The notes beneath the pieces were generated by a model, which made no database searches, was not told where the DNA came from, and was given only the letters and a program-made list of their open reading frames with translations. A program made the translations under genes and the position numbers. 64,000 nucleotides of DNA from Candidatus Multivoradales bacterium (GTDB lineage: Bacteria; Acidobacteriota; Thermoanaerobaculia; Multivoradales; JAHEKO01), in assembly GCA_965212505.1 (NCBI GenBank), contig OZ243123.1, positions 4,624,313-4,688,312 of the forward strand. Reading direction: 5' to 3'. How positions within the stretch are numbered: position 1 is the stretch's first letter; the number at the start of each line of letters is the position of its first letter. Positions 24,296 to 62,884 of the stretch are shown here, in pieces.

Positions 24296-24327
24296 TTTTT
24301 CCACAGGTTGTGGACGCCCTGTGGAAA
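24296..24327. promoter_or_regulatory. Inverted pair of DnaA-box-like 9-mers overlapping the dnaA start (TTTTCCACA ... TGTGGAAAC; perfect 10-bp inverted repeat TTTCCACAGG/CCTGTGGAAA)
   Basis: Each 9-mer is within 1-2 mismatches of TTATCCACA. Positioned for dnaA autoregulation. Confidence 0.5.
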
Positions 24328-24347
24328 CCAGGTGCCCTTGTCTTCGA

Positions 24348-42638: not shown

Positions 42639-43253
42639 ATGAGCGATACCGAACACGAGCGCCCCGAGCTCTCGCCCGAAGAGCCAGAGCTCGCGACCGG
42701 CCAGCTCTATCGGCTCGCCTGGTTCTTCTACCTGTTTCTGGCGGTCGGGGGGGTGCTCTGGATCGGTCTGCGGGAAGGGGCGATTCCGCTCAGCCTCTTC
42801 CTGTCGCTCGACTCGTGGCCGGTGGATCTGGGACTCGGAGTTGCAACCGGTGCGCTTCTGGTCGGAGGGTGGCGCGGACTGGCAAGCCTGTCCCAACGCG
42901 CCCGCGATCTCGAGGACGAGCTCGGCAAGATGCTCGGCCCGCTCGCACCGGCCGAGATCGTGGCGCTCGCCCTCCTTTCGGGTTTTGCCGAGGAGCTCTT
43001 CTTCCGCGGCGCCATGCAGGCGTCCTGGGGCTGGTTGGTGACGACCATCATCTTCGCGTTGATCCACACCGGCCCCGGCCCGGCCTACCGGACGTGGACG
43101 CTCTTCGCTGCGGTCGCCGGCCTCGCGCTGGGTGGGTTGATGCTCTGGCGCGGCAACCTCCTGGCCCCGGTGGTGGCCCATGTGCTCGTGAACGGCGTCA
43201 ACCTGCGGTGGCTGATCGTCGCTCCGCCGGAGAGCGACACTCGCGGCGACTAG
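42639..43253 (+). CDS. CPBP family intramembrane glutamic endopeptidase (CAAX protease-like)
   Basis: EELFFRG, FALIHTG, and HVLVNG motifs in a multi-TM protein. Confidence 0.8.
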   Translation: MSDTEHERPELSPEEPELATGQLYRLAWFFYLFLAVGGVLWIGLREGAIPLSLFLSLDSWPVDLGLGVATGALLVGGWRGLASLSQRARDLEDELGKMLGPLAPAEIVALALLSGFAEELFFRGAMQASWGWLVTTIIFALIHTGPGPAYRTWTLFAAVAGLALGGLMLWRGNLLAPVVAHVLVNGVNLRWLIVAPPESDTRGD

Positions 43254-43338
43254 AAGCGGTCTTCATGGGTAGGGTGCGCCCCCGGCTTCGCTGCTAGACT
43301 CTCTTTCCCAAAACGACCGACGGGAGGAGCGAGCGTAG

Positions 43339-44718
43339 ATGGGCACCGACAGCCAGGATGTCTTCGCGAGGATCGATCGCGAGAAGGAGAGCTACCTCGA
43401 GGAGTTGAAGGAGTTTCTCCGGATCCCCTCGATTTCGACCAAGCCGGAACATGCGGACGACGTTCGCCAGGCCGGAGAGTGGGTGCGGGACAAGCTGACC
43501 GACGCCGGTCTCGAGGCGGAGCTCATCGAGACCGACGGCTATCCGCTGGTCTACGGCGAGTGGAACGGCGCGCCCGGCAAGCCGACGGTTCTCTTCTACG
43601 GCCACTACGACGTACAGCCGCCGGAGCCGCTCGAGGAGTGGCGCAACCCGCCGTTCGAGCCGACCGTCGAGGGCGACCAACTGGTCGCGCGAGGAGCGAC
43701 CGACGACAAGGGGCAGACCTACGCCCAGGTCAAGGCGGTCGCCGCTCTTCTGGCCGAGCGCGGCTCCTTGCCGGTCAACGTCAAGTTCCTGATCGAGGGC
43801 GAGGAGGAGAGCGGTGGCGAGGCGATCGACAAATACGTTCGCGACGACGGCGGCGATCGGCTCGCTTGTGATTCGGTAGTGATCTGCGACACCTCGATGT
43901 ACTCCCCGGGTCAGCCCTCGTTGCTCTACGGCCTGAAGGGTCTCGCCTACATGGAGATCCTGGTCACCGGCCCGAACCACGACCTTCATTCGGGGACCTT
44001 CGGTGGCGGTGTCACCAACCCGGCCAATGCGCTCTCGACGATCATCTCCCGCCTATGGGACGCCGACACCGGTCGGATCGCCATCGAGGGCTTCTACGAC
44101 GACGTGAAGGACCTCGAGGACTGGGAGCGGGAGCAGTGGGGAGCGCTGCCCTTCGACGAGACCGAGTATCGTGCCGAGCTCGGCGTCGAGGAGACGTTCG
44201 GAGAAGAGGGGTACTCGACCGTCGAACGTGTCTGGGGCCGACCGACCCTCGACGTCAACGGACTCTGGAGTGGCTACCAGGGCGAGGGCGCCAAGACGGT
44301 GCTGCCTTCGATCGCCGGCGCCAAGGTCTCCATGCGCCTGGTGCCTCACCAGGATCCCGAGAAGATCGCGCGGCTCTTTGTCGAGCACGTGGAGCGCGTC
44401 AAGCCCAAGGGCGTTACGGTCGAGGTGCGCGACCTGCACGGAGCGCAGCCGGTACTGATCGAAACCTCGGGTGCTATCGCCGACGCCGCTACCGGCGCCC
44501 AGGAAGACGTCTGGGGCAAGGCGCCCTACAAGATTCGCGAGGGCGGCTCGATTCCGGTCGTCGCAACGTTTGCGGAGGTGCTCAGCGTGCCGGTTCTCCT
44601 GGTCGGACTCGGCCTGCCGGACGATCGCCTCCATTCGCCGAACGAGAAGTTCAATCTCAGCTGCTTCTACAACGGCATCAAGACCATCGCACGTCTGCTC
44701 GATCGAGCGGGCGTCTGA
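43339..44718 (+). CDS. M20 family metallo-dipeptidase (dipeptidase/ArgE/DapE superfamily)
   Basis: YGHYDVQP metal-binding motif, GATDDKGQ, and EGEEESGG catalytic/ligand motifs. Confidence 0.85.
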   Translation: MGTDSQDVFARIDREKESYLEELKEFLRIPSISTKPEHADDVRQAGEWVRDKLTDAGLEAELIETDGYPLVYGEWNGAPGKPTVLFYGHYDVQPPEPLEEWRNPPFEPTVEGDQLVARGATDDKGQTYAQVKAVAALLAERGSLPVNVKFLIEGEEESGGEAIDKYVRDDGGDRLACDSVVICDTSMYSPGQPSLLYGLKGLAYMEILVTGPNHDLHSGTFGGGVTNPANALSTIISRLWDADTGRIAIEGFYDDVKDLEDWEREQWGALPFDETEYRAELGVEETFGEEGYSTVERVWGRPTLDVNGLWSGYQGEGAKTVLPSIAGAKVSMRLVPHQDPEKIARLFVEHVERVKPKGVTVEVRDLHGAQPVLIETSGAIADAATGAQEDVWGKAPYKIREGGSIPVVATFAEVLSVPVLLVGLGLPDDRLHSPNEKFNLSCFYNGIKTIARLLDRAGV

Positions 44719-44729
44719 GGAACATCCGA

Positions 44730-45283
44730 TGAGCGAGGGTGTGGAGAGTCAAGAGCGCGAGCTGAAGTTCCCCTGTGAGGGGCTCGACGGCATTCGCGAA
44801 CGTCTCATCGAGCTCGAGGCCGAGCGGCTTCAGGCATCAGCACTCGAGGAGAACCTGCTCTTCGATCGCGGTGGCGAGCTGCAGTCGAACGGCTCTCTCC
44901 TGAGGCTGCGGGTAGACGCCCACGGCACCCGGTTGACCTATAAGGGGCCGGCGACGTTCGAAGGCGAAGTCAAGGTGCGTCAGGAGCTCGAGCTCAAGGT
45001 CGACGACAGCGATCAGGCGCGGGCGTTGCTCGAGCAGCTCGGCTACAAGGCGTCCGCTCGCTACCAGAAGTACCGCGAGGAGTGGCAGCTCGGCGGTGTG
45101 ATCATCGCTCTCGATCACACGCCGGTCGGGGACTTCGCCGAGTTCGAAGGCGACGGCGCCGAGAAGGTTGCGACCCGCTGCCGTTGCGACATCGAGCATG
45201 CGGAGCGGCGGAACTATCTCCAGATCTACAAGGACTACCGCGAGCAGCACCCCGACGCGCCCGCGGACATGGTCTTCCCTTGA
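44730..45283 (+). CDS. CYTH domain protein (CyaB/thiamine-triphosphatase-like)
   Basis: N-terminal ExExK (ELKFP) plus a beta-barrel pattern typical of CYTH. Start moved to MSEGVESQ. Confidence 0.7.
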
Positions 45284-45324
45284 GCCGACTGAATCTCGGC
45301 CGCGCTGCGTGATGGCCTCGACCG

Positions 45325-46371
45325 GTGGCTGAGAGTCCTTTTCGCGCCGTCGTGTTGGCCGCGGGCCTCGGTACCCGGCTTCGGCCCCTGACAGAGTTCG
45401 AACCCAAGCCGGTACTGCCGGTCGGCGGCCGACCCTTGATCGCCCACACCTTGGCGCGCTTGGAGGCGGCCGGCTGCGAGGCCACCGCCCTCAATCTGCA
45501 TCACCTCGGAGAGCGCGTTCGTGAACAGCTGGGCGACTCGTTCGGGTCGATGCCACTCACCTACTCTCCGGAGACCGAACTCCTCGGCACGCTCGGCGCG
45601 CTGGCGCCGCTGCGCGACTTCTGGGCCGAGACCGAAGTCCTGGTCATCGTGAACGGCGACAGCCTTTGCAAATGGCCGATCCGCCAGCTGGTCAAGAGAC
45701 ATCGTCGCAAAGCCGCTGACGTGACCCTCATGCTCTCGCGGCGCGCAAAGGTCGAGGAGTACGGCGGCGGTGTCGGCGTGGCGAAGGGGGGCGCAGTGGT
45801 GTCGATCCGGGGAGAGCAGGCCTGGGGCGATGTCGAGAGGCGTCGGGTCTATGCGGGGGCGCAGGCGATCTCGCCGGCTCTTCTCGAGGGCATGCCGACG
45901 AAGCCACTCGACTTTGTTCCCGACCTTTGGGAACCGATGCTCGAAGAGGGGCGCTCGATTGACAGCTACGAGTCACGGGCACGCTGGTTCGAGAGTGGGA
46001 CTCCCGAGCTCTACCTGCGATCCGTACGCGGCTGGGTCGGCCGGAGTTGGCTACCGAGTTGGATGCGCGGCTCGTGGATTGCGCCCGAGGCGTCGGTGCA
46101 CGACAACGCCCGCATCACGCGGTCCGTGATCGAGAACGACGCAGTGGTCGAGCACGGCGCTCTCGTCGAGCGGTCACTGGTACTGCCGGGCGCGTGCGTA
46201 CGACGCGGCTGCTCGGTGCGACACTCGATTGTCGGCTTCGGTGTCGAGCTGGCTCCCGAGACCAGTGTCGAGCGCCGTCTGGTGACTCCGGAGCGCGCCG
46301 AAGTGCCCCCGCGGCCGGTCGACTCGCTCGTCGGCGGGCTCGTCTACTCCCCGCTGCGACCGTCCGCCTGA
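45325..46371 (+). CDS. Sugar-phosphate nucleotidyltransferase with C-terminal left-handed beta-helix domain
   Basis: N-terminal VVLAAGLGTRLRPLT (the NTP-transferase G-rich loop) and C-terminal hexapeptide repeats. Confidence 0.75.
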   Translation: MAESPFRAVVLAAGLGTRLRPLTEFEPKPVLPVGGRPLIAHTLARLEAAGCEATALNLHHLGERVREQLGDSFGSMPLTYSPETELLGTLGALAPLRDFWAETEVLVIVNGDSLCKWPIRQLVKRHRRKAADVTLMLSRRAKVEEYGGGVGVAKGGAVVSIRGEQAWGDVERRRVYAGAQAISPALLEGMPTKPLDFVPDLWEPMLEEGRSIDSYESRARWFESGTPELYLRSVRGWVGRSWLPSWMRGSWIAPEASVHDNARITRSVIENDAVVEHGALVERSLVLPGACVRRGCSVRHSIVGFGVELAPETSVERRLVTPERAEVPPRPVDSLVGGLVYSPLRPSA

Positions 46372-46560
46372 GGCGCGAAGGAATCGCGTCGTCGCGGCCC
46401 TCCTACCCGTAGGGGCGCGCCGTCAGCGGCACCGTTTCGAGAACTCCTCTATGGACACCCAACCCGGTAACTCCCGAGACGACACCTTCTCCCCGCCGCC
46501 GCGGCGCGCCCTGATTGCTCTCCTCGCCCCGGCGGCACCGGTCGGAAGACGAGGTAGAGT

Positions 46561-47253
46561 TTGCTCGCTGTGGCGACACCAACCAGCTTCCAACTTCTCG
46601 TCTTCGACTGGGACGGAACCCTGGTCGACTCGATCGGCCGAATCGTCGAGTGCACCCAGGCCAGCCTTCGCGACGTCGGCATCGACACGCCAGACGAAGA
46701 GCGGATTCGGATGTCGATCGGCCTGGGCATTCGCGCGATGGTCGATTCGTTCCTGCCCGGTTGTGACGACGCGACCTTTCACAAGATCTGCGACGCCTAT
46801 CGAGGCAATTGGCGCGAGACGTTCTCGCGCGACCCGGTGCTGTTCGACGGAGTCCGCGAAGCGTTGAACGACATGGAAGACGGCGGCTATCTACTGGCGG
46901 TTGCGACGGCCAAGAGCCGTTGGGGTCTGACGCAAGACCTCGAGGCGACCGGCTTGACCACCTTCTTCCACGGCTCGCGAACCGCAGATGAGAGTCAGTC
47001 GAAGCCGCACCCGGCGATGCTGCTCGAGCTCCTCGACGAGTTCGGCGTTCGCGCCGATCAGGCCCTGATGGTGGGCGACACCGTCCACGACCTGCAGATG
47101 GCCCAGAACGCTTCGGTCGCCGGCCTGGGTGTGACCACCGGGTCGCACGAGCGTGAGGATCTGGGCGTGGTCGAGACAATCGACGTTCTGGACGGAGTGA
47201 GCAACATGCCGGCGTGGCTTCGCGAGCTCGAAGGTTCGGAGCCTCGGCCTTGA
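46561..47253 (+). CDS. HAD-superfamily hydrolase (phosphoglycolate phosphatase-like)
   Basis: Motif I FDWDGTLVDS, motif II VATAKS, and motif IV GDTVHD. Confidence 0.8.
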   Translation: MLAVATPTSFQLLVFDWDGTLVDSIGRIVECTQASLRDVGIDTPDEERIRMSIGLGIRAMVDSFLPGCDDATFHKICDAYRGNWRETFSRDPVLFDGVREALNDMEDGGYLLAVATAKSRWGLTQDLEATGLTTFFHGSRTADESQSKPHPAMLLELLDEFGVRADQALMVGDTVHDLQMAQNASVAGLGVTTGSHEREDLGVVETIDVLDGVSNMPAWLRELEGSEPRP

Positions 47254-50741: not shown

Positions 50742-50834
50742 CGGATTCGTCTTCCCGGGCCTCTTGCGCCGAACGCGCCTCGCCGCATAGGTTTGGCAGA
50801 GGGCCGAAACCTGAACGAGGTCGAGGGGAGAACC

Positions 50835-51773
50835 ATGAAGTACCTGTGCCTGAGCATGATCGTGCTGACACTCGTCGCGCTGGCGCCGCCGCCGGCAGCC
50901 GCGCACGACACCATGTCCATGGCCGAGCTGCTGCAGGCGTTCGGCTGGGACTTCGAGACCGCCGAGATCACCGTCGAGCAGGTGGGCGAGAACCTCTGGG
51001 TGCTGTTCGGGCTCGGAGGCAACGTCCTCGCGTCGATCAGTCCGCAGGGGGTCCTGATCGTCGACGACCAGTTTCCGGAGCTGATGCCGAAGATCAAGGC
51101 CGCGATCGCCGAACTTGGTGGCGGCGATGTCGACTTCGCCATCAACACGCACTGGCACTTCGATCATGCCGACGGCAACAAAGTGCTGGGCGAGGAGGGG
51201 ACCTGGTTGGTCTCGCAAATCAACTCGCGCGAGATGATGCTCGACACCCACACCATCGACCTGGTCGGTGCTGCTGTCGACCAGCCCGCCTATCCGAGCG
51301 AGGCGCTGCCGGTGATCACCTACGTCGACGAGATGCAGTTCTTCTTCAACGACGAGCGCATCGACCTGGTGCACTTCGGGCCAGCCCACACCACCGGCGA
51401 CACGGTGGTGATCTTTCGCGGCCACAACGTCGTGCACATGGGAGACGTCTTCAACAACACCGGCTATCCGTTCATCGACGCCGGCAATGGCGGCAGCCTG
51501 GATGGTCTCATCACCTTCTGCCGGGCGGTGCTCGACCGCATCGACCCGGGCACCGTCGTCGTGCCGGGACACGGTCCGGTAGCGACCTACGCCGAGCTCG
51601 ACGCCTACACCTCGATGTTGGCCACCATTCGCGACCGCATGCAGGCCCTCATCGACCGAGGGGCGAGCTTGAGCGACATCATCGAGGCCAAGCCGACGGC
51701 GGAGTGGGACGACAAGATGGGCGACCCGGCCCGTGTTCTCGATCGCGCCTACCTGAGCATGACGCGTCACTAG
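50835..51773 (+). CDS. MBL-fold metallo-hydrolase (subclass B3-like), secreted
   Basis: Signal peptide, the HxHxDH motif (NTHWHFDHADG), and a distal His (VPGHG). Confidence 0.8.
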   Translation: MKYLCLSMIVLTLVALAPPPAAAHDTMSMAELLQAFGWDFETAEITVEQVGENLWVLFGLGGNVLASISPQGVLIVDDQFPELMPKIKAAIAELGGGDVDFAINTHWHFDHADGNKVLGEEGTWLVSQINSREMMLDTHTIDLVGAAVDQPAYPSEALPVITYVDEMQFFFNDERIDLVHFGPAHTTGDTVVIFRGHNVVHMGDVFNNTGYPFIDAGNGGSLDGLITFCRAVLDRIDPGTVVVPGHGPVATYAELDAYTSMLATIRDRMQALIDRGASLSDIIEAKPTAEWDDKMGDPARVLDRAYLSMTRH

Positions 51774-51810: not shown

Positions 51811-53025
51811 CTAGCGCCGGAGTTTCTCGATCAGGCCGAAAACCTCGTCGACCTGCTCCCAGCCGGTACGCATGAGGAACGTGTTGTTGCGCCCGTAGGA
51901 CTTGGCCCCGACGATGAAGAAGTTCGGCTCCGGGTTCACGAGCGTGTCCGCTCCGTGACTCTCCTGGGCGAGACAGTCTCCGCTGCTCGAGCCGAGGAGT
52001 GCTGCGGCAAGCTTCATCGGGCCGCTGGTGGCGTAGCACTCGTGGACTTGCAGCTGTCGGTAGAGGCTGTGATCGCCGACAAATCCTGTGAGCGAGACCA
52101 TGCGGTCTACATCGAGGGTCGTCCGCTCGCCGCTGCGATGGCGGAGTGTCACTTTGTAGCTGCCGTTGGTCGCGGAGATCGACTCGACCACCACGCCCAG
52201 CTCGGTCTTCACCCGGGAGCTTTCCTCGGCGATCTTTTGCGCACGACGAGTGAGACGGGCGCGCTCCGGCAGCGGATCGTCCGGGTCGACGTGCCAGCGA
52301 GGGCTCTCCGAGCGGAGCGCCCAGGTCACCTCGGTGCCCGGGAAGCGCTCGGCCAGCCAGGCCAGGTCGACGACTGCGGTCTGCGCTGAGTGCCCGGCGC
52401 CGACCAGGAGGATCTTTTTCCCCGCCCACCGGCTCTCGTCGCGCACGAGGTCTGGGATGTGGCGCTCGATCGCCGCGGCCGCCGCCTCTTCTCCAGGGGC
52501 TTCGATACCGCCGTCGCCGAGTGCGTTCGGGTGACCCCAAGAGCCGGTGCAGTCCAAGACGACGTCCGCGTGCTCGACCCTTTCGCGCCCATGCTCGTCC
52601 TCGACCAACAGGCGGAACGGCTGTGCGCGGCGCTCCTCGGAGCCGATCTCCTCGTGCTTGAGTAGCCCCTCGCGTCCCACTCGCTTGACCCGCGTACCGG
52701 TTCTCACGTGCGGGGCGACCTGCGGGAGCTCCGCGATCGGGGCGAAGACCGTCTCGACCAGTTCGCTACCGGTGGGACAGTCCGGGTCGTCCTCGGCTGG
52801 CAGTCCCGCTCCGGTCCCTGCCAGTGCGCGACGCATTCGAGGCGAAATGTCCAATCCCCACGGGGTGAAGAGACGCACGTGGCCCCAGCGACGAACGCTC
52901 GAACAGACCTCGGAGCCGGCTTCGTAAACAGTGAACGAGCAGTCGCTTTCTTGGGCTGCGAGGGCTGCTTCGAGTCCTACGGGGCCCGCGCCCAGAATGG
53001 CGATGTGCGGTGTTTCGGAGCTCAT
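51811..53025 (-). CDS. FAD/NAD(P)-binding oxidoreductase (flavin monooxygenase-like)
   Basis: N-terminal Rossmann IAILGAGPVGLEAALAA and a second GxGxxA (LVGAGHSAQTA). Confidence 0.7.
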   Translation of the reverse strand: MSSETPHIAILGAGPVGLEAALAAQESDCSFTVYEAGSEVCSSVRRWGHVRLFTPWGLDISPRMRRALAGTGAGLPAEDDPDCPTGSELVETVFAPIAELPQVAPHVRTGTRVKRVGREGLLKHEEIGSEERRAQPFRLLVEDEHGRERVEHADVVLDCTGSWGHPNALGDGGIEAPGEEAAAAAIERHIPDLVRDESRWAGKKILLVGAGHSAQTAVVDLAWLAERFPGTEVTWALRSESPRWHVDPDDPLPERARLTRRAQKIAEESSRVKTELGVVVESISATNGSYKVTLRHRSGERTTLDVDRMVSLTGFVGDHSLYRQLQVHECYATSGPMKLAAALLGSSSGDCLAQESHGADTLVNPEPNFFIVGAKSYGRNNTFLMRTGWEQVDEVFGLIEKLRR

Positions 53026-53028
53026 GGG

Positions 53029-54135
53029 TCAGTACCTTGAAGAAGCCCGCTCCTTGGCGGGGAGGATTTCCAAGCAGGTGGTCCACCATCCGGTGAGGAC
53101 GGTCTCGACGAACTCTTCCGGCAGCTCTTCGACTCGCATCTCTGCCGCGAGCGCGTCGTGATCGTAGGCGAGCGGAACCAGCTCGACCGCAAGCCCTTCC
53201 GATCTCTCTTCGAGCATGGCGTACCAGACGTGAGTGTTGCCATCGTTTGCCGGCCGGCCGATGACACCTACGTTGACGACGTCGCCGCCGGAGGGCAGTT
53301 TGCGGTGCCATGGCAGACCGGTGTGGGTACAAAGGAAGCCGTCCGCCTTCTCCTGGCCGAGAAGCACTTCGAGGAACGCTGTCGGTGTCGTGGAAAGAAA
53401 CAGGAACTCGTTGATCTGTCGGGGTGAGCCGTGGACCAGCAACAGTTCGCGATCGCCGACGCGCACACGCCGTCGCTCCGGCAGCTCCCCCATCCACTCC
53501 TTGAACTCGGGCGCGCAATTGCGGGCTGTGTAGTTGTACGAGAGCTCTGCGAAGTGGTTGTCGCGCGGATCCGTGTAGCCGCAGTTGCAGTCCTCGTGGC
53601 CGGTTGCCAGCGACTGCTCGTAGTTGCCCTGAAGGGTCGACACGCCCCCCTCGTCGAGCAGTGGTCGGACCCGGTTCGGATTGGGCCCGAAGCCGCCCAG
53701 ATCTCCGAGGCAGTAGATCGCCTCGGCCCCTCGCCGGGTCGCGTCGTCGAGGAGAGCGGTCAAGCCGTAGTGGTTGTTGTAGACGCCGCCAAAGACTGCG
53801 ATCCGCGAGTACGGCCCCTCTACCGGAGTCTCGTCGTCCGAAATCGCCAAGAAGCTGTCGACCTCTTCGGCGCGCCCTTCCGGCGAGAGCTCGCGACCGG
53901 CCTTCGCGGTCGCCTCTCGGAACTCACCCAGCGGCACCAACCTCTCCCCCCAGGTCGCAAGACCACGATGCACGGTCAGAGGCGACGAGTCGCGCCGCTT
54001 CTTGTCTCGATCGTCCTTTGGAGTTCTCGGGCTCATTCGGAGGAACCAAGAGAGGGGCTCGTCAAACAACTGGCCATCGACGCAAGTCCGACAGGAGGGT
54101 TTGTCAAGGGAGGGCTCTCCCTTGACCCCAATCAA
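53029..54135 (-). CDS. Metallophosphoesterase (calcineurin-like) family protein
   Basis: GDLGGFGPNP and GNYE/GH motifs typical of the calcineurin fold. Four-nt gap to the upstream oxidoreductase. Confidence 0.7.
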   Translation of the reverse strand: MIGVKGEPSLDKPSCRTCVDGQLFDEPLSWFLRMSPRTPKDDRDKKRRDSSPLTVHRGLATWGERLVPLGEFREATAKAGRELSPEGRAEEVDSFLAISDDETPVEGPYSRIAVFGGVYNNHYGLTALLDDATRRGAEAIYCLGDLGGFGPNPNRVRPLLDEGGVSTLQGNYEQSLATGHEDCNCGYTDPRDNHFAELSYNYTARNCAPEFKEWMGELPERRRVRVGDRELLLVHGSPRQINEFLFLSTTPTAFLEVLLGQEKADGFLCTHTGLPWHRKLPSGGDVVNVGVIGRPANDGNTHVWYAMLEERSEGLAVELVPLAYDHDALAAEMRVEELPEEFVETVLTGWWTTCLEILPAKERASSRY

Positions 54136-54153
54136 CTCTCTCCCTTGATTCGG

Positions 54154-54951
54154 TCACGTCTTGCAACTCACTCCGAACACATGGCACGTCCAGCAGGCCG
54201 GATGCCCCATCTCGAACGGCCCCAGCGTGTCGGCGATCGCCTCGCCCATCTTGCCGTCGGGCTCGTTGACCAGAATCGGGCAGACCCACACCCCTTGATC
54301 GGTGACCATTCGGCAGCCGCTGCATTGCAAGTGCGACCAGCCGTCGGATGGCGTGTCGCCCTCGCGCAACCGCTGCCAGCTCTCGTAGGCGCCGCCGCGT
54401 TCGGCCTCGGCGCCCATGCGGAAGACGGGTAGCATCTTGAGCCGCGGCTTCTCGATGCCCATCTCGCTCAGGAGCTCGAAGAAGCGCAGGCGACCCTCTC
54501 GAGAGGCGTTTTGATCGTGCACCTCGGTGACCGTGATCACGGGATTGATCCCCGCTCGGTAGAGGTTGGAGATCCCGCCGAGAATCCGCACGAACGTCCC
54601 TTCGCCTCGAATCGGGTCGTTCGTGGCGGCGTCGTAGCCGTCCATCGACACTCTGAAGTCGAGAGAGTAGTCGCTCGCCGTGGCGAGTTTCGCGAGTCGC
54701 TCGCAGCGCACCGGATCGAGAAGTAGACCGTTGGTGAGAACCGTCGCCGGGCCGTACTCGAGAGTCCTCGCGAGGATGGCCTCCATCTCGGAATTGAGGA
54801 ACGGCTCGCCGCCGGTGAAGTAGTACTCCTTCACCCCCAGGCGCGCGCCCTCTTCGAGATAGGGCACAACCTCTTCCAACGACAACCCATCGTGAGTGTG
54901 GTTGGTCGGCGAGCTCGAGACGAAGCAGTGCGTGCACGCGAGATTGCACAC
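54154..54951 (-). CDS. arsS: ArsS-like radical SAM protein (arsenosugar-biosynthesis type), Cys-rich C-terminus; true start probably upstream (frame open to ~55104 without ATG/GTG/TTG)
   Basis: CNLACTHCF radical SAM cluster motif, a GGEP SAM-binding motif, and a C-terminal Cys-rich tail (CSGCRMV...CP...HPACWTCHVFGVSC). Positioned immediately downstream of arsM. Confidence 0.7.
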   Translation of the reverse strand: MCNLACTHCFVSSSPTNHTHDGLSLEEVVPYLEEGARLGVKEYYFTGGEPFLNSEMEAILARTLEYGPATVLTNGLLLDPVRCERLAKLATASDYSLDFRVSMDGYDAATNDPIRGEGTFVRILGGISNLYRAGINPVITVTEVHDQNASREGRLRFFELLSEMGIEKPRLKMLPVFRMGAEAERGGAYESWQRLREGDTPSDGWSHLQCSGCRMVTDQGVWVCPILVNEPDGKMGEAIADTLGPFEMGHPACWTCHVFGVSCKT

Positions 54952-55034
54952 CGTACCGGCGATCTGAAACCAGAGGGTGTCCAGCGAGCGGAGCTCGACC
55001 TTCGGTGCAGCCCGCGCGACCTCGATCGGCTGAC

Positions 55035-56189
55035 TCAGCAGCAGTCTCCCGGTTCGCAGCAGGCCTTGGCCTCGGTGGTTGCGTCGTATTCGAGCCCTTT
55101 CGTTTCACGAGGGTGCCGAAGGACCGTGCGCGAGCAGTCGAACGGCTCGGCGGCCTCGAGCGGAACCTCCTCGAGCGGATCGACGAAGTCGAAGTGCTCG
55201 CGATAGGGCTCGCGCTTGTAGATGTTGTAGGTCTTGTCGCAGACAGCGTAGCGGTGGCCACGCTCCATGCGGTGATCGTCGTCGTCGAGGACCTCTTTGA
55301 ACGGACCGCGATAGACCACCGCCTGGTTGCGCTCGACGCAGGGCCCTTCTTTGCCCTTGAACGCCTCGACGGTGAGCGAACGGAACTCGATGCCCTCGAC
55401 GGTGCGCCACGGCTCTTCCTGCCGTTCGAGCACTCGCACGCCGTAGAAGCCGACCTCTTCGAACGCTTTCAGAAATCCGTCTTCGGTGAAGGCGCCAGAG
55501 ATACAGCCACTCCAGAGATCCGCGTCCGTCTGCATGGAGAGCGGTACATCTTCGTCGCTCACAATGTCCGAGATCACCGCGCGACCGCCGTTGTTCAGCA
55601 CTCGGTAGATCTCTTCGAAGAGCTCGCGCTTGCGCGAGTTGTCGACCAGGTTCAGCACGCAGTTCGACACCACCACGTCGACCGAGTCGTCGGCGACCAA
55701 CGGCCGGCTCCGGCGAAGCTCTTCGCTCAACCCTTCGATCTCGAGCAGGCCCTCGACGTCGGTAACCGGCGTCGAGCCGAGGCGCTCCTCGAGTAGGTCG
55801 AGGTCTAGGGCGAGGTCCTGAATCCGCCCTCGGCGAAATTCGACGTTCGAGAAGCCGATGCGCTCGGCGACCACCGGTACGTTGCGACGTGCGACATCGA
55901 GCATGTCGGGCGTCATGTCGACGCCGATCACCTTGCCCTGCGCTCCCACCACCTGGGCTGCGATGAAGCAGATCTTCCCTGTTCCGCTCCCCAGGTCGAG
56001 CACGGTCTCGCCTTCGTTCAGGAAGCGGCTCGGATCACCGCAACCGTAGTCGCGCTCGAGAACCTCGCTCGGGATCACCTCCAAGTAGCGAGGGTCGTAG
56101 TCGACCGGGCAGCAGAGCTCCGGCACCTGGGTCTGGGCGCCGGCGCTGTAGCGCTCTTTGACGGCCCGCTCTGTATTGGCAACTGTCAT
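55035..56189 (-). CDS. arsM: Arsenite S-adenosylmethionine methyltransferase ArsM with Cys-rich C-terminal tail
   Basis: VKERYSAGAQ..CCPVDYD (N-terminal Cys pair), GCGDP, VLDLGSGTG, GVDMTPDMLDVAR, VVVSNCVLNL, and WSGCISGA (third As-binding Cys) match the characterized ArsM pattern. C-terminus ends KACCEPGDCC. Confidence 0.85.
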   Translation of the reverse strand: MTVANTERAVKERYSAGAQTQVPELCCPVDYDPRYLEVIPSEVLERDYGCGDPSRFLNEGETVLDLGSGTGKICFIAAQVVGAQGKVIGVDMTPDMLDVARRNVPVVAERIGFSNVEFRRGRIQDLALDLDLLEERLGSTPVTDVEGLLEIEGLSEELRRSRPLVADDSVDVVVSNCVLNLVDNSRKRELFEEIYRVLNNGGRAVISDIVSDEDVPLSMQTDADLWSGCISGAFTEDGFLKAFEEVGFYGVRVLERQEEPWRTVEGIEFRSLTVEAFKGKEGPCVERNQAVVYRGPFKEVLDDDDHRMERGHRYAVCDKTYNIYKREPYREHFDFVDPLEEVPLEAAEPFDCSRTVLRHPRETKGLEYDATTEAKACCEPGDCC

Positions 56190-56306
56190 CTAGATTCCAC
56201 TCCAGTCTCTGGCGGAGCCCTCTCCGCCGTTCAAGAAGTCGTCTCGCATCGATGCGCGAGGGGGCGACCGGCTTGGCGGTCGCGCGTCGTTGGGTCTCGG
56301 TCGGCT

Positions 56307-57038
56307 CTAGGCCGGCGGACCGCGAAGCGATCGAGTCGGTCGATAGCCAGTTGCGGTGACGCCCACGAGAGCGGGTGCCAGGGGGGTACAGAGGGCGAGG
56401 AGCGCGGCGCGCAACTCTCGCAAGAGCCCCTGCCAGCGCGGTGCCTGTTCTCGAGCGATCCAGGCGAGAAGATCTCGAGCGCGATCGAGATCACGCAATG
56501 GCTCGAGAAGGTAGACCTCGAGGCCGCGCTCTTCGAGCGCCCTGCGAAGGGTGGCGAGCGTAGCGTGGCAACACCAGTGAACGCTCGCTAGCTCAGCATC
56601 GAGGCAGATGTTGGTTGCGAGCAGGTAGAAGCCGCCGTCGGGAGACGGTCCGAGTACGACGCGCCGGCGTGAAGACCCGAGCCGGCCGAGCGCTTCCCGC
56701 ACGTGGCGAGACTCAAGCCCCGGCACGTCGGAGCCCACCGCCACGACCGGTCCGTCCGCTTCCAGGCGTGCTGCCGAAAGAGCGTTTCGGAATCTCTCGC
56801 CGAACGAGGCGCCCGTCTGGCGAATCATGTGAGCCCCGGGCTCGGTCAGCTGCGGCTCGGTCGTAGCAACCTGAAGCCGGCAACCGGAAGTTCGCCCGGC
56901 GGTCAAAGCCGCGTCGAGGCTCTCCCGCAGAACGCTTCGTGTCAGCCCGTCGAATCGTCTCGGCAGGAGCCGCCGCTGCGCACACTCACTCGCGGGAGTT
57001 CGGGCAAAGACGAGCAGACTCGGCTGGTGGGCTGTCAT
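56307..57038 (-). CDS. DUF2064 (TIGR04282-type, glycosyltransferase-like nucleotidyltransferase fold) protein associated with arsenosugar clusters
   Basis: LLVFARTP N-terminus and DGGFYLLA motif typical of DUF2064. Located upstream of arsM on the same strand. Confidence 0.6.
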   Translation of the reverse strand: MTAHQPSLLVFARTPASECAQRRLLPRRFDGLTRSVLRESLDAALTAGRTSGCRLQVATTEPQLTEPGAHMIRQTGASFGERFRNALSAARLEADGPVVAVGSDVPGLESRHVREALGRLGSSRRRVVLGPSPDGGFYLLATNICLDAELASVHWCCHATLATLRRALEERGLEVYLLEPLRDLDRARDLLAWIAREQAPRWQGLLRELRAALLALCTPLAPALVGVTATGYRPTRSLRGPPA

Positions 57039-57128
57039 CTAGAAGGTGGGTACGAAGCGAGGGCGTTTGCGGATCGCTTCGGATGCGGCAGTCTATCTTG
57101 GCTCTCCGTTCGCTATGATCTCCCGGCT

Positions 57129-57548
57129 TTGGCCAGATACCTCGCGATCTCGCTGCCGCTCCTGGTACTCCTGATGGGCGGATTCACCTTCGTACTCGGC
57201 GCCGTCGGATTGAGCCCCTCTCTCGCCTCGTTGGAGCGAGCGGGTCTGGCGCGGCCCGAGGCGCTGCCGATCGGCCTCTCCGTTGCGGGTTGGCTGATCG
57301 AGACGCTCGCCCTGACGGCGCTCTTTCTCTTGATTCAAGATCGCACCGGCGCCTGGTGGATCGACGGCCTGGTCGCGGGCATGATCGGATGGGTCTTCCG
57401 CGGTCCGATCCTGGTGTTGACGATCGTTTCGACCAGTCGTCTCGGCGTCGACCCCTGGTGGCCGATGGCCCTGCGGCTCCTGCTGCTCTACTCGATCTGT
57501 GGCCTCGCCCTCGCGATGATCGCCCGATCGGTTGGGCTCGAGCGATGA
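57129..57548 (+). CDS. Small multi-TM membrane protein, hypothetical (TTG start; ATGA-coupled to the type III PKS)
   Basis: Four predicted TM helices. The stop overlaps the PKS start. No ATG in frame; TTG proposed. Confidence 0.4.
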   Translation: MARYLAISLPLLVLLMGGFTFVLGAVGLSPSLASLERAGLARPEALPIGLSVAGWLIETLALTALFLLIQDRTGAWWIDGLVAGMIGWVFRGPILVLTIVSTSRLGVDPWWPMALRLLLLYSICGLALAMIARSVGLER

Positions 57549-58627
57549 GCGGCGCACCACGAGTGGTCGCGGTCGGCAGTGCGTTTCCAGAGCACTACTA
57601 CGAGCAGGAAGAGCTCCTGGCGGCCTTCCGCCGCGTCTGGGCGCCGAAGATCTTCAACCTTGCACGACTCGAACGACTCCACCGTAACGTATTGGTCGGG
57701 AATCGCCATCTGGCACTGCCGCTCGAGAAGTACGAAGAGCTCGAGACGTGGGGCCAGGCGAACGACGCTTGGATCGAGGTGGCGCAGGACGTCGGCGCGC
57801 GCGCTGTCTCCGACGCCCTCGAGCGCGCCGGTCTGTCGGTCGAGGACCCTGCGGCGATCTTCTTCGTGACGGTCACCGGTGTCGCCACGCCGTCGATCGA
57901 TGCTCGGTTGATCAACCGACTCGGTCTCTCGTCGAGCATCAAGCGCAACCCGATCTTTGGTCTCGGCTGTGTGGCGGGAGCCGCCGGCATCGCCCGCGCG
58001 TCGGACTACGTGCGTGCCTTCCCCGATCAGGTCGCTGTACTGCTCTCGGTCGAGCTCTGCTCCTTGACCCTCCAGCAGAAGGACTTCTCGGTGGCCAACC
58101 TGATCTCCTCCGGACTCTTCGGAGACGGTGCGGCCGCAGCGGTTGTTGCCGGGGCCGAGTGCCCGTTGAACGACGCCCCTAGGGGGCCTCGAGTGGTCGC
58201 GACTCGCTCGATCTTCTACCCCGACTCCGAGCGGGTGATGGGCTGGGACATCTCGGAGAGCGGCTTCCAAGTTGTGCTCTCACCAGAGGTCCCTGAAGTC
58301 GTGCGACAGTTTCTTCGGCGCGACGTCGATGCGTTTCTCGGCGATCTCGACTTGGAGGTTGGCGACATCAACTCGTGGGTTGCCCACCCCGGCGGTCCGA
58401 AGGTCCTTCAGGCGATGGAAGAGTCGCTCGAGATCGAGGGCGGCGAGAAGGGGGCACTCGGCGTCACCTGGCGGAGCCTCAAAGAGGTCGGCAACCTCTC
58501 CTCCACCTCCGTGCTGCTAGTGCTCCAAGAGACGATGGCCGAGCACCGCCCCGAGCCTGGGAGCCTAGGAATGCTCCTCGCCCTCGGTCCGGGTTTCTGT
58601 TCGGAACTTGTGCTCCTCGAGTGGTAG
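57545..58627 (+). CDS. Type III polyketide synthase (chalcone/stilbene synthase superfamily)
   Basis: Catalytic Cys in GLGCVAGAAG, His in WVAHPGGPKVL, and Asn in GNLSSTSV. About 361 aa. Confidence 0.85.
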   Translation: MSGAPRVVAVGSAFPEHYYEQEELLAAFRRVWAPKIFNLARLERLHRNVLVGNRHLALPLEKYEELETWGQANDAWIEVAQDVGARAVSDALERAGLSVEDPAAIFFVTVTGVATPSIDARLINRLGLSSSIKRNPIFGLGCVAGAAGIARASDYVRAFPDQVAVLLSVELCSLTLQQKDFSVANLISSGLFGDGAAAAVVAGAECPLNDAPRGPRVVATRSIFYPDSERVMGWDISESGFQVVLSPEVPEVVRQFLRRDVDAFLGDLDLEVGDINSWVAHPGGPKVLQAMEESLEIEGGEKGALGVTWRSLKEVGNLSSTSVLLVLQETMAEHRPEPGSLGMLLALGPGFCSELVLLEW

Positions 58628-59101
58628 CTACGGCGTCGCGTCGAGGAGCGAGCACCAGAAGGTCACGGCGGTGAGCTTCTTGTTGCCCTTGAGGTTCAGC
58701 TCGGCGACCAGCGCCACCTGCTGGGCGAAGCCCGCTCGACGCGGGATCGGATAGTCGAAGGTCACGATGCCGTTCTTGTTGGTCTTGGCGGTCTGATCTT
58801 CGAACACTTCGATCTCCGCGTAGGTGTTGGCGTCGACCAGTCGCGCCGAGACGGTCCCCTTCACGCCTTTGCGCGGCTCGCTGCTCACAAGGGCGTCGAT
58901 TGCACAGGTGGCGGACAGCTCGTCCTCGAGGATGCCGCCAACCACGACAGGGCCAGGTTCCTCGACGTCCTTGGCCTTGGTCTCCTGGTCGTGGGTGACC
59001 GTCGACGCGGCGTTGTTCGTTCCGGTATCGGCGCCCAGAGGAGAGAGGGCGAAGAGGAAGAACACGAGCGCGAAAGCGAGCCTGCACGAGAGCTTCGTCA
59101 T
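58628..59101 (-). CDS. Small secreted hypothetical protein
   Basis: Signal peptide (MTKLSCRLAFALVFFLFALSPLGA). Paralogous to the next gene. Confidence 0.5.
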   Translation of the reverse strand: MTKLSCRLAFALVFFLFALSPLGADTGTNNAASTVTHDQETKAKDVEEPGPVVVGGILEDELSATCAIDALVSSEPRKGVKGTVSARLVDANTYAEIEVFEDQTAKTNKNGIVTFDYPIPRRAGFAQQVALVAELNLKGNKKLTAVTFWCSLLDATP

Positions 59102-59112
59102 TCGTCGTCCTC

Positions 59113-59616
59113 CTAGCTGCAGGCCGGGTCGCTCGACCCGTTGCAGAGATCGCCAAAGCCGTAGATACAGCGCAAGCGAATCTCGTCGGTTTTCTTCTTG
59201 TTGACGGGGTCGGCGGTCGCGGTGAGCACCGAGTTCGCGGGAGCGGCGCCGAGAAGTGGCGGCACCACGATCGGCTTCGTCCATCCGTCTTTCTTCGTGC
59301 GCTTGGTTTCCGTGGTGTCACTCAAGAGATTGCGCTCCGCATCGTGAATACGGAAGCGCACGTCCGACTTGACTCCTTTGAGAGCGCCGAACACCGCGCA
59401 GCGGATCTCCTTGGCCTGGCCGCTGGAGGCCGAGAGTGGTATCAGCACGGTCAGCACACCGCTCGAGAAGGTGTTGGCGGCCGCCTCGGCGTCTTTGGTC
59501 TGTGCGGCCTCGGCCTCGCTGAAGCGACGGACCTCGGCGGCACCGGCTGAGTCAACCGGGGCGAACGAGCACAGCACGACCGCGACGAGCGAGAGGATGG
59601 TGCACCTGCGAGTCAT
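59113..59616 (-). CDS. Small secreted hypothetical protein (paralog)
   Basis: Signal peptide. Shares the C..F.AL.KGVK...R..DA...........T.KT.K.G pattern with the neighbouring gene. Confidence 0.5.
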   Translation of the reverse strand: MTRRCTILSLVAVVLCSFAPVDSAGAAEVRRFSEAEAAQTKDAEAAANTFSSGVLTVLIPLSASSGQAKEIRCAVFGALKGVKSDVRFRIHDAERNLLSDTTETKRTKKDGWTKPIVVPPLLGAAPANSVLTATADPVNKKKTDEIRLRCIYGFGDLCNGSSDPACS

Positions 59617-59685
59617 CGTTCCTCCTTTCCTCTCGGGTGAGCGCATACAGCCTACAGCACGCCTCTCCGGCGGATGAAAGGAGCC

Positions 59686-60522
<837 letters not shown>

Positions 60523-60747
60523 GGTGATCGAACCTATCGCGGATCTTGAGGACCGACAATTGTAGCTTCCGCTTGGCGAAGCGGGATCGTGGATCGGGGG
60601 ACCGTCTGTGCCGTGAAGCGCCAACATCGCGGATGCCGCTGCATTCCCGGTGGATAGAATCGAATGTACTCCTACAACTTGCAGCGACTCGTCCCTCGAC
60701 TGCCGGTTGTGGTCTAGAAACCCGCTTGTGAGGGGTGGAGGTGTTAG

Positions 60748-61872
60748 ATGCCAAGACGAGCAGCACTCATGGCGGCGCAGACGATTCTGATTCTCTGGGC
60801 ACATCAGGCATTGGCGACTGCCCCGCTCCCGGTGACGCCAAAAGCCGAAGCTGGTGGGGGTGTCGCCACGATGTTTACGCCCTGCCCGACGTTCCATTGG
60901 GTAGAGAGCCCTGAAGCCCGTCGATACGAGCTGGTCGTCTTCGACGCGGAGGCGTCCGAGCTCTATCGGGTCGAGCTCCCCGCGGGCGCCCAGATGTGGA
61001 CTCCGACAATCGACCGTTGTTTTGAGCCTGGTCTTCAGTACGCCTGGGCTTTGCGCGCCGTCGTAGACGAGTCGACTGAGCTCTGGTCCGATGTTGTGCT
61101 CTTTCGGGTCACGCGCCCAGGCGCTTTGACGAGAGGCCGGCGATCCGACAATGAAGAGCTTCCCATCTCGCCGGCTCCCAGTGAGTCGAGCGGCACTCAG
61201 TCGCCGCCGCCGAGTTCACCGCTGCCGACCGAAGGCCCTGGTCTCCTCGCCCCAGAGCGTCAGCGAGTCGTGTCGGGCGAGCAAACGAAGACGGCCGGTA
61301 TCTCGATCAGCTCTGCGATCAGCGTCGACGACAACCTCCACGCGACAACCGGTGACACGCCGACGCTCCGCCTGGAGCAAGACGGCTCTGGCAGCTTCAC
61401 TCCACAGACTTGGGACATCCGAGCGAACGAGACAGACTTCCGCATCGTAGATGTCGACGCCGACGAGACGCGCTTCAGGATCGATCGATCGAGCGGGCTG
61501 GTAAGCGGCGCCTTCGCAATCGCCTCCGATTGGATCACGCCAAGCACCTATACCGGTTCCGATGTCTTTGGGGTCCTCAATTTTCGAGCGGTTATCTCCG
61601 CCCCGGAGATCACCCAGGAGGTGATCGATTCGGGCGCAGTTGTCGTCTATGGGAATCTGCTGTCCTATGCGGTGGGTTTCTGGCCGCCAGGAGAGGTCGC
61701 CCAGTTGCCGATCACGACGGTTTATGTCGCGGGCGACATTTTCTACGAGGACCGATGGTCGTACCGCTTGAACCCGGGTTCGCTGGAGATTCACGTCACG
61801 AATAACGAGGATCTCTACTCGACGTTCCCTTCGGGGGCAGAGTTTCGGTACGTGGTGATACCGCCCCCTTAG
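60748..61872 (+). CDS. Secreted hypothetical protein
   Basis: Signal peptide (LILWAHQALATAP); protein-like composition. No recognisable domain. Confidence 0.5.
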   Translation: MPRRAALMAAQTILILWAHQALATAPLPVTPKAEAGGGVATMFTPCPTFHWVESPEARRYELVVFDAEASELYRVELPAGAQMWTPTIDRCFEPGLQYAWALRAVVDESTELWSDVVLFRVTRPGALTRGRRSDNEELPISPAPSESSGTQSPPPSSPLPTEGPGLLAPERQRVVSGEQTKTAGISISSAISVDDNLHATTGDTPTLRLEQDGSGSFTPQTWDIRANETDFRIVDVDADETRFRIDRSSGLVSGAFAIASDWITPSTYTGSDVFGVLNFRAVISAPEITQEVIDSGAVVVYGNLLSYAVGFWPPGEVAQLPITTVYVAGDIFYEDRWSYRLNPGSLEIHVTNNEDLYSTFPSGAEFRYVVIPPP

Positions 61873-62069
61873 CGGCCACGTGACGCCGCGTCCGACTTGG
61901 CCGGAGTGGAACGGCGTGCGAGCCCGAGATCAGGTGGCCCGAGGCCTGCGGTCCGAGCTTCAAGATGACGAGAAGTCGCAGGAGACAGGGTCAGCGGCTG
62001 AGGAGGGCGAAACGTCTCGAGCGCCGAGGTCGCGCGCGAGTGCGAGAAGCCGCGACATAATCACCCGCG

Positions 62070-62648
62070 GTGCTGGACATCCTCGCTCTCGATAGCCGAA
62101 CCCTTTACCTGCTCCTGATCGTCGCGATTGTTCTCGAGCGGCTGGTGGAGCTGCGCATCACCCAACGGAACCTCGCCTGGGCGATGCAGAACGGCGGCAT
62201 CGAAGCGGGGCGCGGGCACTACCCGGTGATGGTCGCGCTGCACACGGCGTTCTTGATTGCCGGGCCGGCCGAAGTCCTCTTGCTCGACAGACCGTTCATC
62301 GCGGGGCTCGGCTTCCCGATGCTGGCGGTCGTCCTTCTCGGCATGGGGCTCCGCTACTGGGCGGTCACGACGCTCGGCAAGCGATGGACGACACGGGTGG
62401 TGTGCGTGCCGGGCCTGCCGGTCGTCACGGGTGGGCCGTATCGATTCGTGCGCCACCCAAACTACGTGGCGGTGGTGCTCGAGATCTTCGCGCTGCCGCT
62501 CGTCCACTCAGCGTGGCTGACGGCGCTGGTGTTCACGGTTGCGAACCTCTTCCTGCTGCGCACTCGTATTCGGGTCGAGGAAGAGGCGCTCGAGGAGTTC
62601 AACGACTACCGAGAAGGTTTTCGCGCGGCGCGGGCGAGTTCGACATGA
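62070..62648 (+). CDS. Isoprenylcysteine carboxyl methyltransferase (ICMT) family membrane methyltransferase
   Basis: Multi-TM with the C-terminal GPYRFVRHPNY...E motif characteristic of ICMT/PEMT-fold methyltransferases. Confidence 0.8.
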   Translation: MLDILALDSRTLYLLLIVAIVLERLVELRITQRNLAWAMQNGGIEAGRGHYPVMVALHTAFLIAGPAEVLLLDRPFIAGLGFPMLAVVLLGMGLRYWAVTTLGKRWTTRVVCVPGLPVVTGGPYRFVRHPNYVAVVLEIFALPLVHSAWLTALVFTVANLFLLRTRIRVEEEALEEFNDYREGFRAARASST

Positions 62649-62884
62649 CGGCCGAAGAGATCCTGAGCGAGATTCGACAGCTCGCGCGCGAACGGTTGGC
62701 GTTGGAGATGACGGTCGAGCCGGCGAGTCGGCTGGTCGAAGATCTGGGGCTCGATTCGCTGCGACTCCAGGCGCTCGCGATCGAGGTCGAGAATCACTTT
62801 CGGATCTGCCTCGAGCCCGAGGACGAAGAGTCGATCCGCACCATCGGCGATCTCGTCTCGACGATCGACGGGAAGTTGGCGTGA
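62644..62884 (+). CDS. Acyl carrier protein
   Basis: About 80 aa with the phosphopantetheine attachment motif LGLDSL. Overlaps the ICMT stop and the FAAL start. Confidence 0.75.

Follow-up and report, generated by a model that had tools for sequence, protein, structure and literature searches.

A cassette of five genes in Candidatus Multivoradales bacterium (contig OZ243123.1), a member of the Thermoanaerobaculia, may direct the biosynthesis of an organoarsenical through a hitherto undescribed variant of the route in which an ArsM-type methyltransferase is paired with an enzyme of the radical S-adenosylmethionine (SAM) class; the radical SAM enzyme would in this case be a new one, forming the carbon-arsenic (C-As) bond of a product not yet described. 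We give this reading about an even chance of being right. The cassette runs from position 57038 to position 51811, on the minus strand, of a 64,000-nt stretch of DNA that was analysed as a whole (hereafter the window; ~64% G+C). To our knowledge, only two radical SAM enzymes make C-As bonds, ArsS in the synthesis of arsenosugars and ArsL in that of the antibiotic arsinothricin, and the systems with which the cassette is to be compared are the SsArsM/SsArsS pair of Synechocystis (arsenosugar) and the arsQML genes of Burkholderia gladioli (arsinothricin). A search of the literature returned no description of a cassette with this gene content. The evidence set out below is all genomic, and nearly all of the loci compared come from metagenome-assembled genomes (MAGs).

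The five open reading frames (ORFs) encode, in cassette order, a DUF2064 protein of 243 aa (56307-57038), an ArsM-family SAM-dependent methyltransferase of 384 aa (MT; 55035-56189), a radical SAM enzyme of 294 aa (rSAM; 54154-55038), an atypical metallophosphoesterase-fold protein of 335 aa (MPE; 53029-54036) and a two-dinucleotide-binding (two-Rossmann) flavoprotein of 404 aa (FLAV; 51811-53025). They are separated successively by 117 nt, a 2-nt overlap of stop and start codons between MT and rSAM, 117 nt and 3 nt, and searches of Pfam and NCBIfam upheld the domain identity of each product. A first-pass annotation of this DNA had described five co-directional, tightly spaced genes here, and the ORF calls of the window bear it out. 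It had also remarked that no resistance genes lie nearby, and a Pfam scan of the entire window, which covered ~50 coding-like ORFs (all except a few of less than 120 aa), likewise turned up no arsR, arsB/acr3 or arsC domain. Its general view of the cluster, as arsenic-linked and biosynthetic in appearance rather than a resistance operon, is supported by what follows; its more specific view, that the cluster makes arsenosugars through ArsS, is not.

The product of the second gene is ArsM-like. Cysteines C50, C177 and C229 align with Cys72, Cys174 and Cys224 of CmArsM (PDB 4fr0), and a CC pair at residues 26 and 27 falls 3-4 residues from the column of CmArsM Cys44. These five residues (C26, C27, C50, C177 and C229) are invariant across 120 homologues, and the CC-rich C-terminal tail (CCEPGDCC) is invariant or nearly so. 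Several Methyltransf_* domains of Pfam match as well, giving MT both the SAM-binding fold and the set of four cysteines by which ArsM is recognized. The spacing of Cys26/50/177/229 (24/127/52) is identical to that of Cys30/54/181/233 in BgArsM, a protein of ~378 aa (PMC8552651), and the architecture as a whole is of the BgArsM type. The top-scoring model is that of the arsinothricin ArsM, NF040538, which matches residues 19-337 in a single stretch with 346.5 bits, below its cut-off of 500; NF008823 (arsenite methyltransferase; cut-off 263) and NF038099 (arsenosugar ArsM; cut-off 400) give 201.1 and 118.9 bits. The arsenic-binding cysteines and the tail to which the first-pass annotation had pointed are all present; the cut-offs of these three models are missed.

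The start of the rSAM gene calls for comment. The frame is open upstream to 55104, and the first ATG, GTG or TTG in it is the GTG at 54951, a single codon ahead of the cluster motif CxxxCxxC. Homologues have ordinary starts (ATG, GTG or TTG) some 25-35 residues upstream of that motif, and the peptide ...AAPKVELRSLDTLWFQIAGTVCNLACTHC of the window is conserved throughout the family. The likely start is a CTG at 55038; it shares bases with the stop codon of MT (in the sequence CTGA) and is preceded by GGGAGA. The database protein that is 100% identical to rSAM (P0133) has 237 aa and lacks CxxxCxxC, so the gene has apparently been mis-called.

Read from the CTG, rSAM carries CxxxCxxC as C31/C35/C38 and a second set of cysteines toward its C terminus, C239-x13-C253...C282-x2-C285-x6-C292 (GVSC-KT), the last of them two residues from the end and invariant in all 81 of the complete sequences. 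The protein ends in ...CWTCHVFGVSCKT, and it has the SPASM/twitch plan, a partial TIM-barrel core followed by a Cys-rich C-terminal domain for auxiliary clusters. The family has many members and is strongly conserved (70-85% identity); the sources name it only generically, as 'radical SAM protein'. NCBIfam release 20 has no model for it, and no curated NCBIfam family reaches its cut-off with rSAM: the uncharacterised Rv1681 family comes nearest (99 bits, cut-off 380), with generic SPASM/twitch enzymes next. rSAM differs from known enzymes of that plan (BlsE, SkfB, MoaA, anSME and SuiB) in that it lies in an arsenic-linked context and not in a pathway for a peptide, sugar or cofactor.

The first-pass annotation had taken rSAM for ArsS, and here the search with a hidden Markov model speaks clearly: the ArsS model, TIGR04167, returns 38.5-45.1 bits (lowest E-value among five family members, 6.4e-16), where its cut-off is 300. 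What survives of the idea is a more distant relationship. When the family was aligned with ArsS by hhalign, the probability was 97.9% and the E-value 5e-13, with 23% identity over 223 columns; the aligned stretch runs from CxxxCxxC through the first C-terminal cysteine pair, and the tails, which lie outside it, are likened by pattern only. The tail of ArsS reads C250-x14-C265...C305-x2-C308-x7-C316 (GSSC), and its counterpart in rSAM ends in GVSC. In selenoproteins of the ArsS family, GxxU is the reported selenocysteine site (PMC13188914). On these comparisons rSAM is a distant homologue of ArsS that shares its C-terminal cysteine plan ending in GxSC. It differs also from ArsL, which is a protein of ~428 aa with CxxxCxxC near residue 194 and which binds arsenic via a C-terminal cysteine tail (RCCLKC): rSAM has 294 aa, has its motif at residues 31-38 and is without RCCLKC. 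Judged by sequence, then, rSAM is neither ArsS nor ArsL, and belongs to an unnamed family of the SPASM/twitch type.

Loci collected through MT gave the most informative comparison. Of 80 metagenome loci with close relatives of MT, 24 were adequately flanked; a radical SAM gene of the window type accompanies MT in 10 of these, a true ArsS (425-439 bits with TIGR04167) stands immediately downstream in 9, and 5 have neither. This clade of methyltransferases is therefore typically coupled to a radical SAM enzyme (19/24), and the pairing of methyltransferase and radical SAM protein on which the first-pass annotation relied is conserved. The loci with ArsS (L095, L107, L114, L122, L126, L128, L135, L136 and L155) are non-cyanobacterial, and their methyltransferases are 62-71% identical to MT of the window. 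In a tree of the clade, the ArsS-coupled methyltransferases form one group and those coupled to the window-type enzyme another, with one exception. The genes that accompany ArsS vary and include a TIGR04283 glycosyltransferase, an Lpd/MerA-like flavoprotein, a VTT/DedA protein, and a PitA-like transporter or MIP channel; a second radical-SAM-like protein, of 483 aa, and an EamA transporter also occur there. In the lineage of the window, a different enzyme fills the slot that ArsS occupies in its sister clade.

Loci collected through rSAM itself show which genes belong together. When one genome per species was scanned by pattern, at least 416 genomes proved to encode the family, mostly MAGs of Thermoanaerobaculia and other Acidobacteriota, and many metagenome contigs carry it too. 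The 80 best rSAM loci, almost all of them from MAGs of Thermoanaerobaculia, other Acidobacteriota or Holophagales, were searched with the cassette proteins by tblastn, and the 48 with full flanks were counted. MPE is present in 46 of the 48 and FLAV in 44, whereas MT is present in 26 and DUF2064 in 23 (four of them without MT). A Pst-type ATP-binding cassette (ABC) importer occurs in 15, always together with MT (15/26 loci with MT, 0/22 without). The cassette thus consists of a constant core, rSAM-MPE-FLAV, and an optional module made up of DUF2064, MT and often the Pst importer. This reverses the first-pass view, in which the metallophosphoesterase and the flavoprotein were additional tailoring genes: it is MT and DUF2064 that are dispensable.

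The arrangement of the genes bears on whether core and module work together. The stop codon of MT overlaps the start of rSAM in the window and in loci L001 and L005, and MT is predicted to be translationally coupled to the rSAM gene. In eight loci (L020, L022, L025, L030, L032, L090, L143 and L151) the module lies inside the core operon, between MPE and FLAV; elsewhere it stands ahead of the core. One locus with neighbouring nonribosomal peptide synthetase genes, possibly from a myxobacterium (L001), keeps the order DUF2064-MT-rSAM-MPE-FLAV-ferrochelatase and is without the polyketide synthase that commonly stands beside the cassette. Closely related members of the rSAM tree differ in whether they carry the module, a pattern that indicates repeated gain or loss. 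The gene upstream of rSAM varies among MT, PstB, DUF2064 and a small membrane protein. We count the restriction of the Pst importer to loci with MT in favour of an arsenic-handling cassette; the ArsS-type loci carry PitA-like transporters or MIP channels instead. In the importer of L003, PstC passes its cut-off (224 bits against 196), and PstS (132 against 207), PstA (156 against 193) and PstB (268 against 343) fall below theirs.

The other members of the cassette have recognizable folds and unusual details. Calcineurin-like metallophosphoesterases build a dinuclear metal site from the motifs DxH, GD, GNH[DE], H and GHxH. MPE matches Metallophos_2 of Pfam at 30.6 bits (cut-off 27), and its nearest solved relatives are the uncharacterised archaeal proteins 2gju and 1nnw; its ORF is open to 54135 (368 aa), but homologues begin at the ATG at 54036. 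Motif I is replaced by GGxYNN and motif III reads GNYE; the GD (D145) and GN (N171) elements, H235 and H271 are conserved, and four invariant cysteines, C142, C183, C185 and C354, are added (all in the numbering of the 368-aa ORF). FLAV matches Pyr_redox_3 and Pyr_redox_2 of Pfam. NCBIfam gives YpdA at 45 bits and ArsO at E=1.8e-4, and a profile search of the PDB returned 4usq and 4usr (SMFMO-type monooxygenases) together with TrxR-like reductases, all of them weak matches. FLAV is without a CxxC motif, has C330 and C351 conserved, and weakly resembles enzymes of the SMFMO/ArsO/YpdA type. The DUF2064 protein is related to nucleotidyltransferases of the CofC/MobA type (CofC, 28.7 bits) and passes the Pfam model PF09837 comfortably (68.3 bits against 25.8). 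With TIGR04282, a model labelled 'arsenosugar biosynthesis glycosyltransferase', it scores 94.6 bits, under the cut-off of 134; the first-pass link between this gene and arsenosugar clusters survives as a relationship and not as membership.

We speculate that rSAM forms the C-As bond by joining a part of SAM to a trivalent arsenical, which the invariant C-terminal tail, CxxC...GxSC, would hold. The part transferred would be 5'-deoxyadenosyl, as with ArsS, or a different one, as with ArsL. rSAM probably acts first, on inorganic As(III), and MT, where it is present, would then methylate the mono-substituted arsenical. Because the core occurs without MT, this order, which is that of ArsL, is more consistent with the loci than the order of ArsS, which needs dimethylarsenite first. 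The Pst-like importer, where there is one, may supply arsenate; FLAV could turn As(III) into As(V) by oxygenation or else serve in the recycling of thiols; and the nucleotidyltransferase-like DUF2064 protein and MPE might process a nucleotide-like or phosphoester-like intermediate. A parallel among known systems is the arsinothricin pathway, in which the radical SAM enzyme ArsL acts first on As(III) and methylation by ArsM is an optional second step, an arrangement that fits the dispensability of MT; MT also has its best model match in NF040538 and shares the cysteine spacing of BgArsM. The parallel has limits: the cassette is without the arsQ permease, it has extra core genes, and MT stays below the cut-off of the arsinothricin model.

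A number of points weigh against this proposal. MT is absent from 22 and DUF2064 from 25 of the 48 fully flanked loci, and the absence of MT means that the core need not handle arsenic at all, unless arsM lies elsewhere in those genomes. By sequence, rSAM falls outside the definitions of both ArsS and ArsL, and its best curated match is the unrelated Rv1681 family. The arrangement of its cysteines is also that of SPASM/twitch enzymes in general, and those at the C terminus may serve an auxiliary Fe-S cluster alone. Host phylogeny, and not the partner enzyme, may account for the split in the MT tree. If arsenate is imported, it would have to be reduced, and the ORF scans of the window disclosed no arsenate reductase to convert it; Pst genes in arsenic islands are, moreover, usually read as serving phosphate-selective uptake and not the supply of arsenate. 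Finally, the roles that we assign to MPE, FLAV and DUF2064 are guesses.

The most serious of the alternatives is one that we consider unlikely but by no means negligible: the rSAM-MPE-FLAV core is unrelated to arsenic and modifies some other metabolite, such as a tetrapyrrole or the lipid of the neighbouring polyketide operon, while DUF2064, ArsM and Pst constitute a separate module for arsenic tolerance and phosphate uptake that has landed beside it repeatedly. The many loci without MT fit such a view, as does the interspersion of the module among close relatives in the rSAM tree. A type III polyketide synthase (PKS) gene lies adjacent to the cassette, in divergent orientation, in 43 of the 48 loci, and a ferrochelatase gene lies directly downstream in 27, including 20 of the 22 that have no MT; the region is, besides, a hot spot for insertions (a defence-like ATPase/DUF4276 pair, Fic, Schlafen and FKBP genes). 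Against this stand the predicted translational coupling of MT to rSAM, the insertion of the module within the core operon, and the company that MT keeps: in 19 of the 24 loci collected through it, a gene for one or the other radical SAM type lies beside it, as one would not expect of a detoxifying ArsM that stands alone. L001 retains all five genes where there is no PKS. As for a tetrapyrrole, the ferrochelatase neighbour prompted us to consider rSAM as a heme synthase of the AhbD/NirJ kind, a reading that we rejected at ~50-55 bits against cut-offs of at least 500.

That rSAM is isofunctional with ArsS, adding a 5'-deoxyadenosyl group to dimethylarsenite (DMAs(III)) made by MT, and that the cassette makes arsenosugars after all, seems to us improbable. 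The resemblance to the ArsM/ArsS arrangement is real. An ArsM-type methyltransferase lies directly upstream of a distantly homologous radical SAM protein with a matching Cys-rich C terminus ending in GxSC; a relative of TIGR04282 is present and resistance genes are not; and the slot is the one that carries ArsS elsewhere in the same methyltransferase clade. The two enzymes are nevertheless only 23% identical, and the score of 45 bits stands against a cut-off of 300. ArsS requires DMAs(III), and an enzyme with that requirement is a poor fit to loci of which about half dispense with the cassette methyltransferase. The constant partners of rSAM, a phosphoesterase and a flavoprotein resembling flavin-dependent monooxygenases, are absent from the ArsS loci that we examined, which have TIGR04283, VTT/DedA, Lpd-like, PitA and MIP genes in their stead, and the cassette has no TIGR04283 glycosyltransferase. 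Nothing in the evidence supports an arsenosugar as the product.

Plain detoxification, with methylation of arsenite by ArsM leading to volatilisation and with no part in it for the neighbouring genes, is very unlikely. MT does have the full set of ArsM catalytic cysteines, and some of its homologues are labelled 'arsenite methyltransferase' by JGI, but it falls short of the arsenite methyltransferase model (201 bits against 263), the window scans revealed no arsR, acr3/arsB or arsC beside it, and the order MT-rSAM, with overlapping frames, is conserved across distant taxa. The least credible of the alternatives, that a SPASM/twitch enzyme here matures a peptide made on the ribosome and modified post-translationally (RiPP), draws on the maturases SkfB, ChlB, SuiB and CteB among the nearest folds and on NCBIfam matches of 57-65 bits to ScmE/F, MftC and StsB, all far below their cut-offs, and we rejected it on finding no conserved small ORF next to rSAM that could be a precursor, a variable upstream neighbour, and no RiPP recognition element, protease or exporter.

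The genes on the far side of the cassette, all on the plus strand, make up an operon like those of the Srs type for phenolic lipids, with the same set of genes (type III PKS, ICMT-like methyltransferase, flavin hydroxylase, fatty acyl-AMP ligase and acyl carrier protein). In the window, the PKS gene (57545-58627; 360 aa; Chal_sti_synt_N and Chal_sti_synt_C of Pfam) is followed by genes for the ICMT-type methyltransferase (62070-62648; Pfam ICMT, 96 bits) and, located by tblastn with the genes of locus L004, for the acyl carrier protein (ACP; ~62660-62884) and the fatty acyl-AMP ligase (FAAL; from 62896 to the window end at 64000, and thus incomplete). Three inserted genes (58628-62069) split the operon: an ORF of 218 aa without known function, a gene resembling a tandem-FKBP lipoprotein (59686-60897, minus strand) and an ORF of 374 aa without known function. 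Relatives have other insertions at the same place, namely Fic, Schlafen/AlbA_2, FKBP and DUF6263 genes. At the head of the operon, between the cassette and the PKS gene, lies a gene for a small membrane protein of ~140-150 aa (57114-57548, plus strand), which matches nothing in Pfam or NCBIfam; a homologue occurs, in either orientation, in 34 of the 48 loci, and its link to the cassette is uncertain.

The Srs-like operon is a neighbour of the five genes and not a part of them, and the adjacency, frequent in Acidobacteriota, does not hold in L001 or in several of the metagenome loci. A functional link between the two is possible, though unproven. The boldest form of our proposal would make use of it: rSAM would be a third independent family of radical SAM enzymes that form C-As bonds, after ArsS and ArsL, acting on inorganic As(III) that the cell takes up deliberately through a dedicated Pst-like transporter, and what it makes would be coupled to the lipid, of the alkylresorcinol or quinone type, that the PKS/FAAL/ACP/ICMT operon produces, giving abundant soil Acidobacteria a new class of bacterial arsenolipid. 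We regard this as a long shot.

On the other flank, the ferrochelatase of L001 (12309-13352; TIGR00109, 297 bits) follows FLAV directly, with a gap of 7 nt. The window has no such gene; in its place stands a convergent one with the metallo-beta-lactamase fold (50793-51773). In several relatives an OLD/AbiEii-like ATPase (AAA_21/AAA_15) and a DUF4276 protein are encoded by a pair of genes inserted between FLAV and ferrochelatase (L035, 13068-14930; L063, 13093-14916; L040, 13165-14334; L081, 12992-14248); the two have the look of a module for defence or of a toxin rather than of pathway genes.

The wider setting is a chromosomal backbone. Farther downstream of the cassette, genes for an Rce1-like protease, an M20 peptidase, a CYTH protein, a nucleoside triphosphate (NTP)-transferase and a HAD hydrolase (42639-47253) follow one another as in most of the related Thermoanaerobaculia loci, so that the cassette lies in a conserved part of the chromosome and on no obvious mobile island. 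The window also takes in the replication-origin region (10086-36226), with parA-like, jag (R3H), yidC and rnpA genes on the minus strand and dnaX, recR, dnaA (24321-25637), dnaN, recF, gyrB and gyrA on the plus strand, and the cassette is therefore ~26-30 kb from dnaA. Cumulative GC skew has its minimum at ~28-32 kb of the window. No Rfam family matched between 51.0 and 58.8 kb, and promoter and terminator scans gave nothing that exceeded shuffled controls.

It seems, therefore, that methyltransferases of the ArsM type may have more partners than those so far recognized. The cassette points to a third partner enzyme, one that is widespread and that current pipelines name only 'radical SAM protein'. 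If organoarsenical biosynthesis is indeed its function, then soil Acidobacteria would make an organoarsenical that has not been described, and some of them would devote an oxyanion importer to it; this would bear on the speciation of arsenic in the environment. On the same condition, radical SAM chemistry of a new kind, or an arsenical with bioactivity, could come to light.

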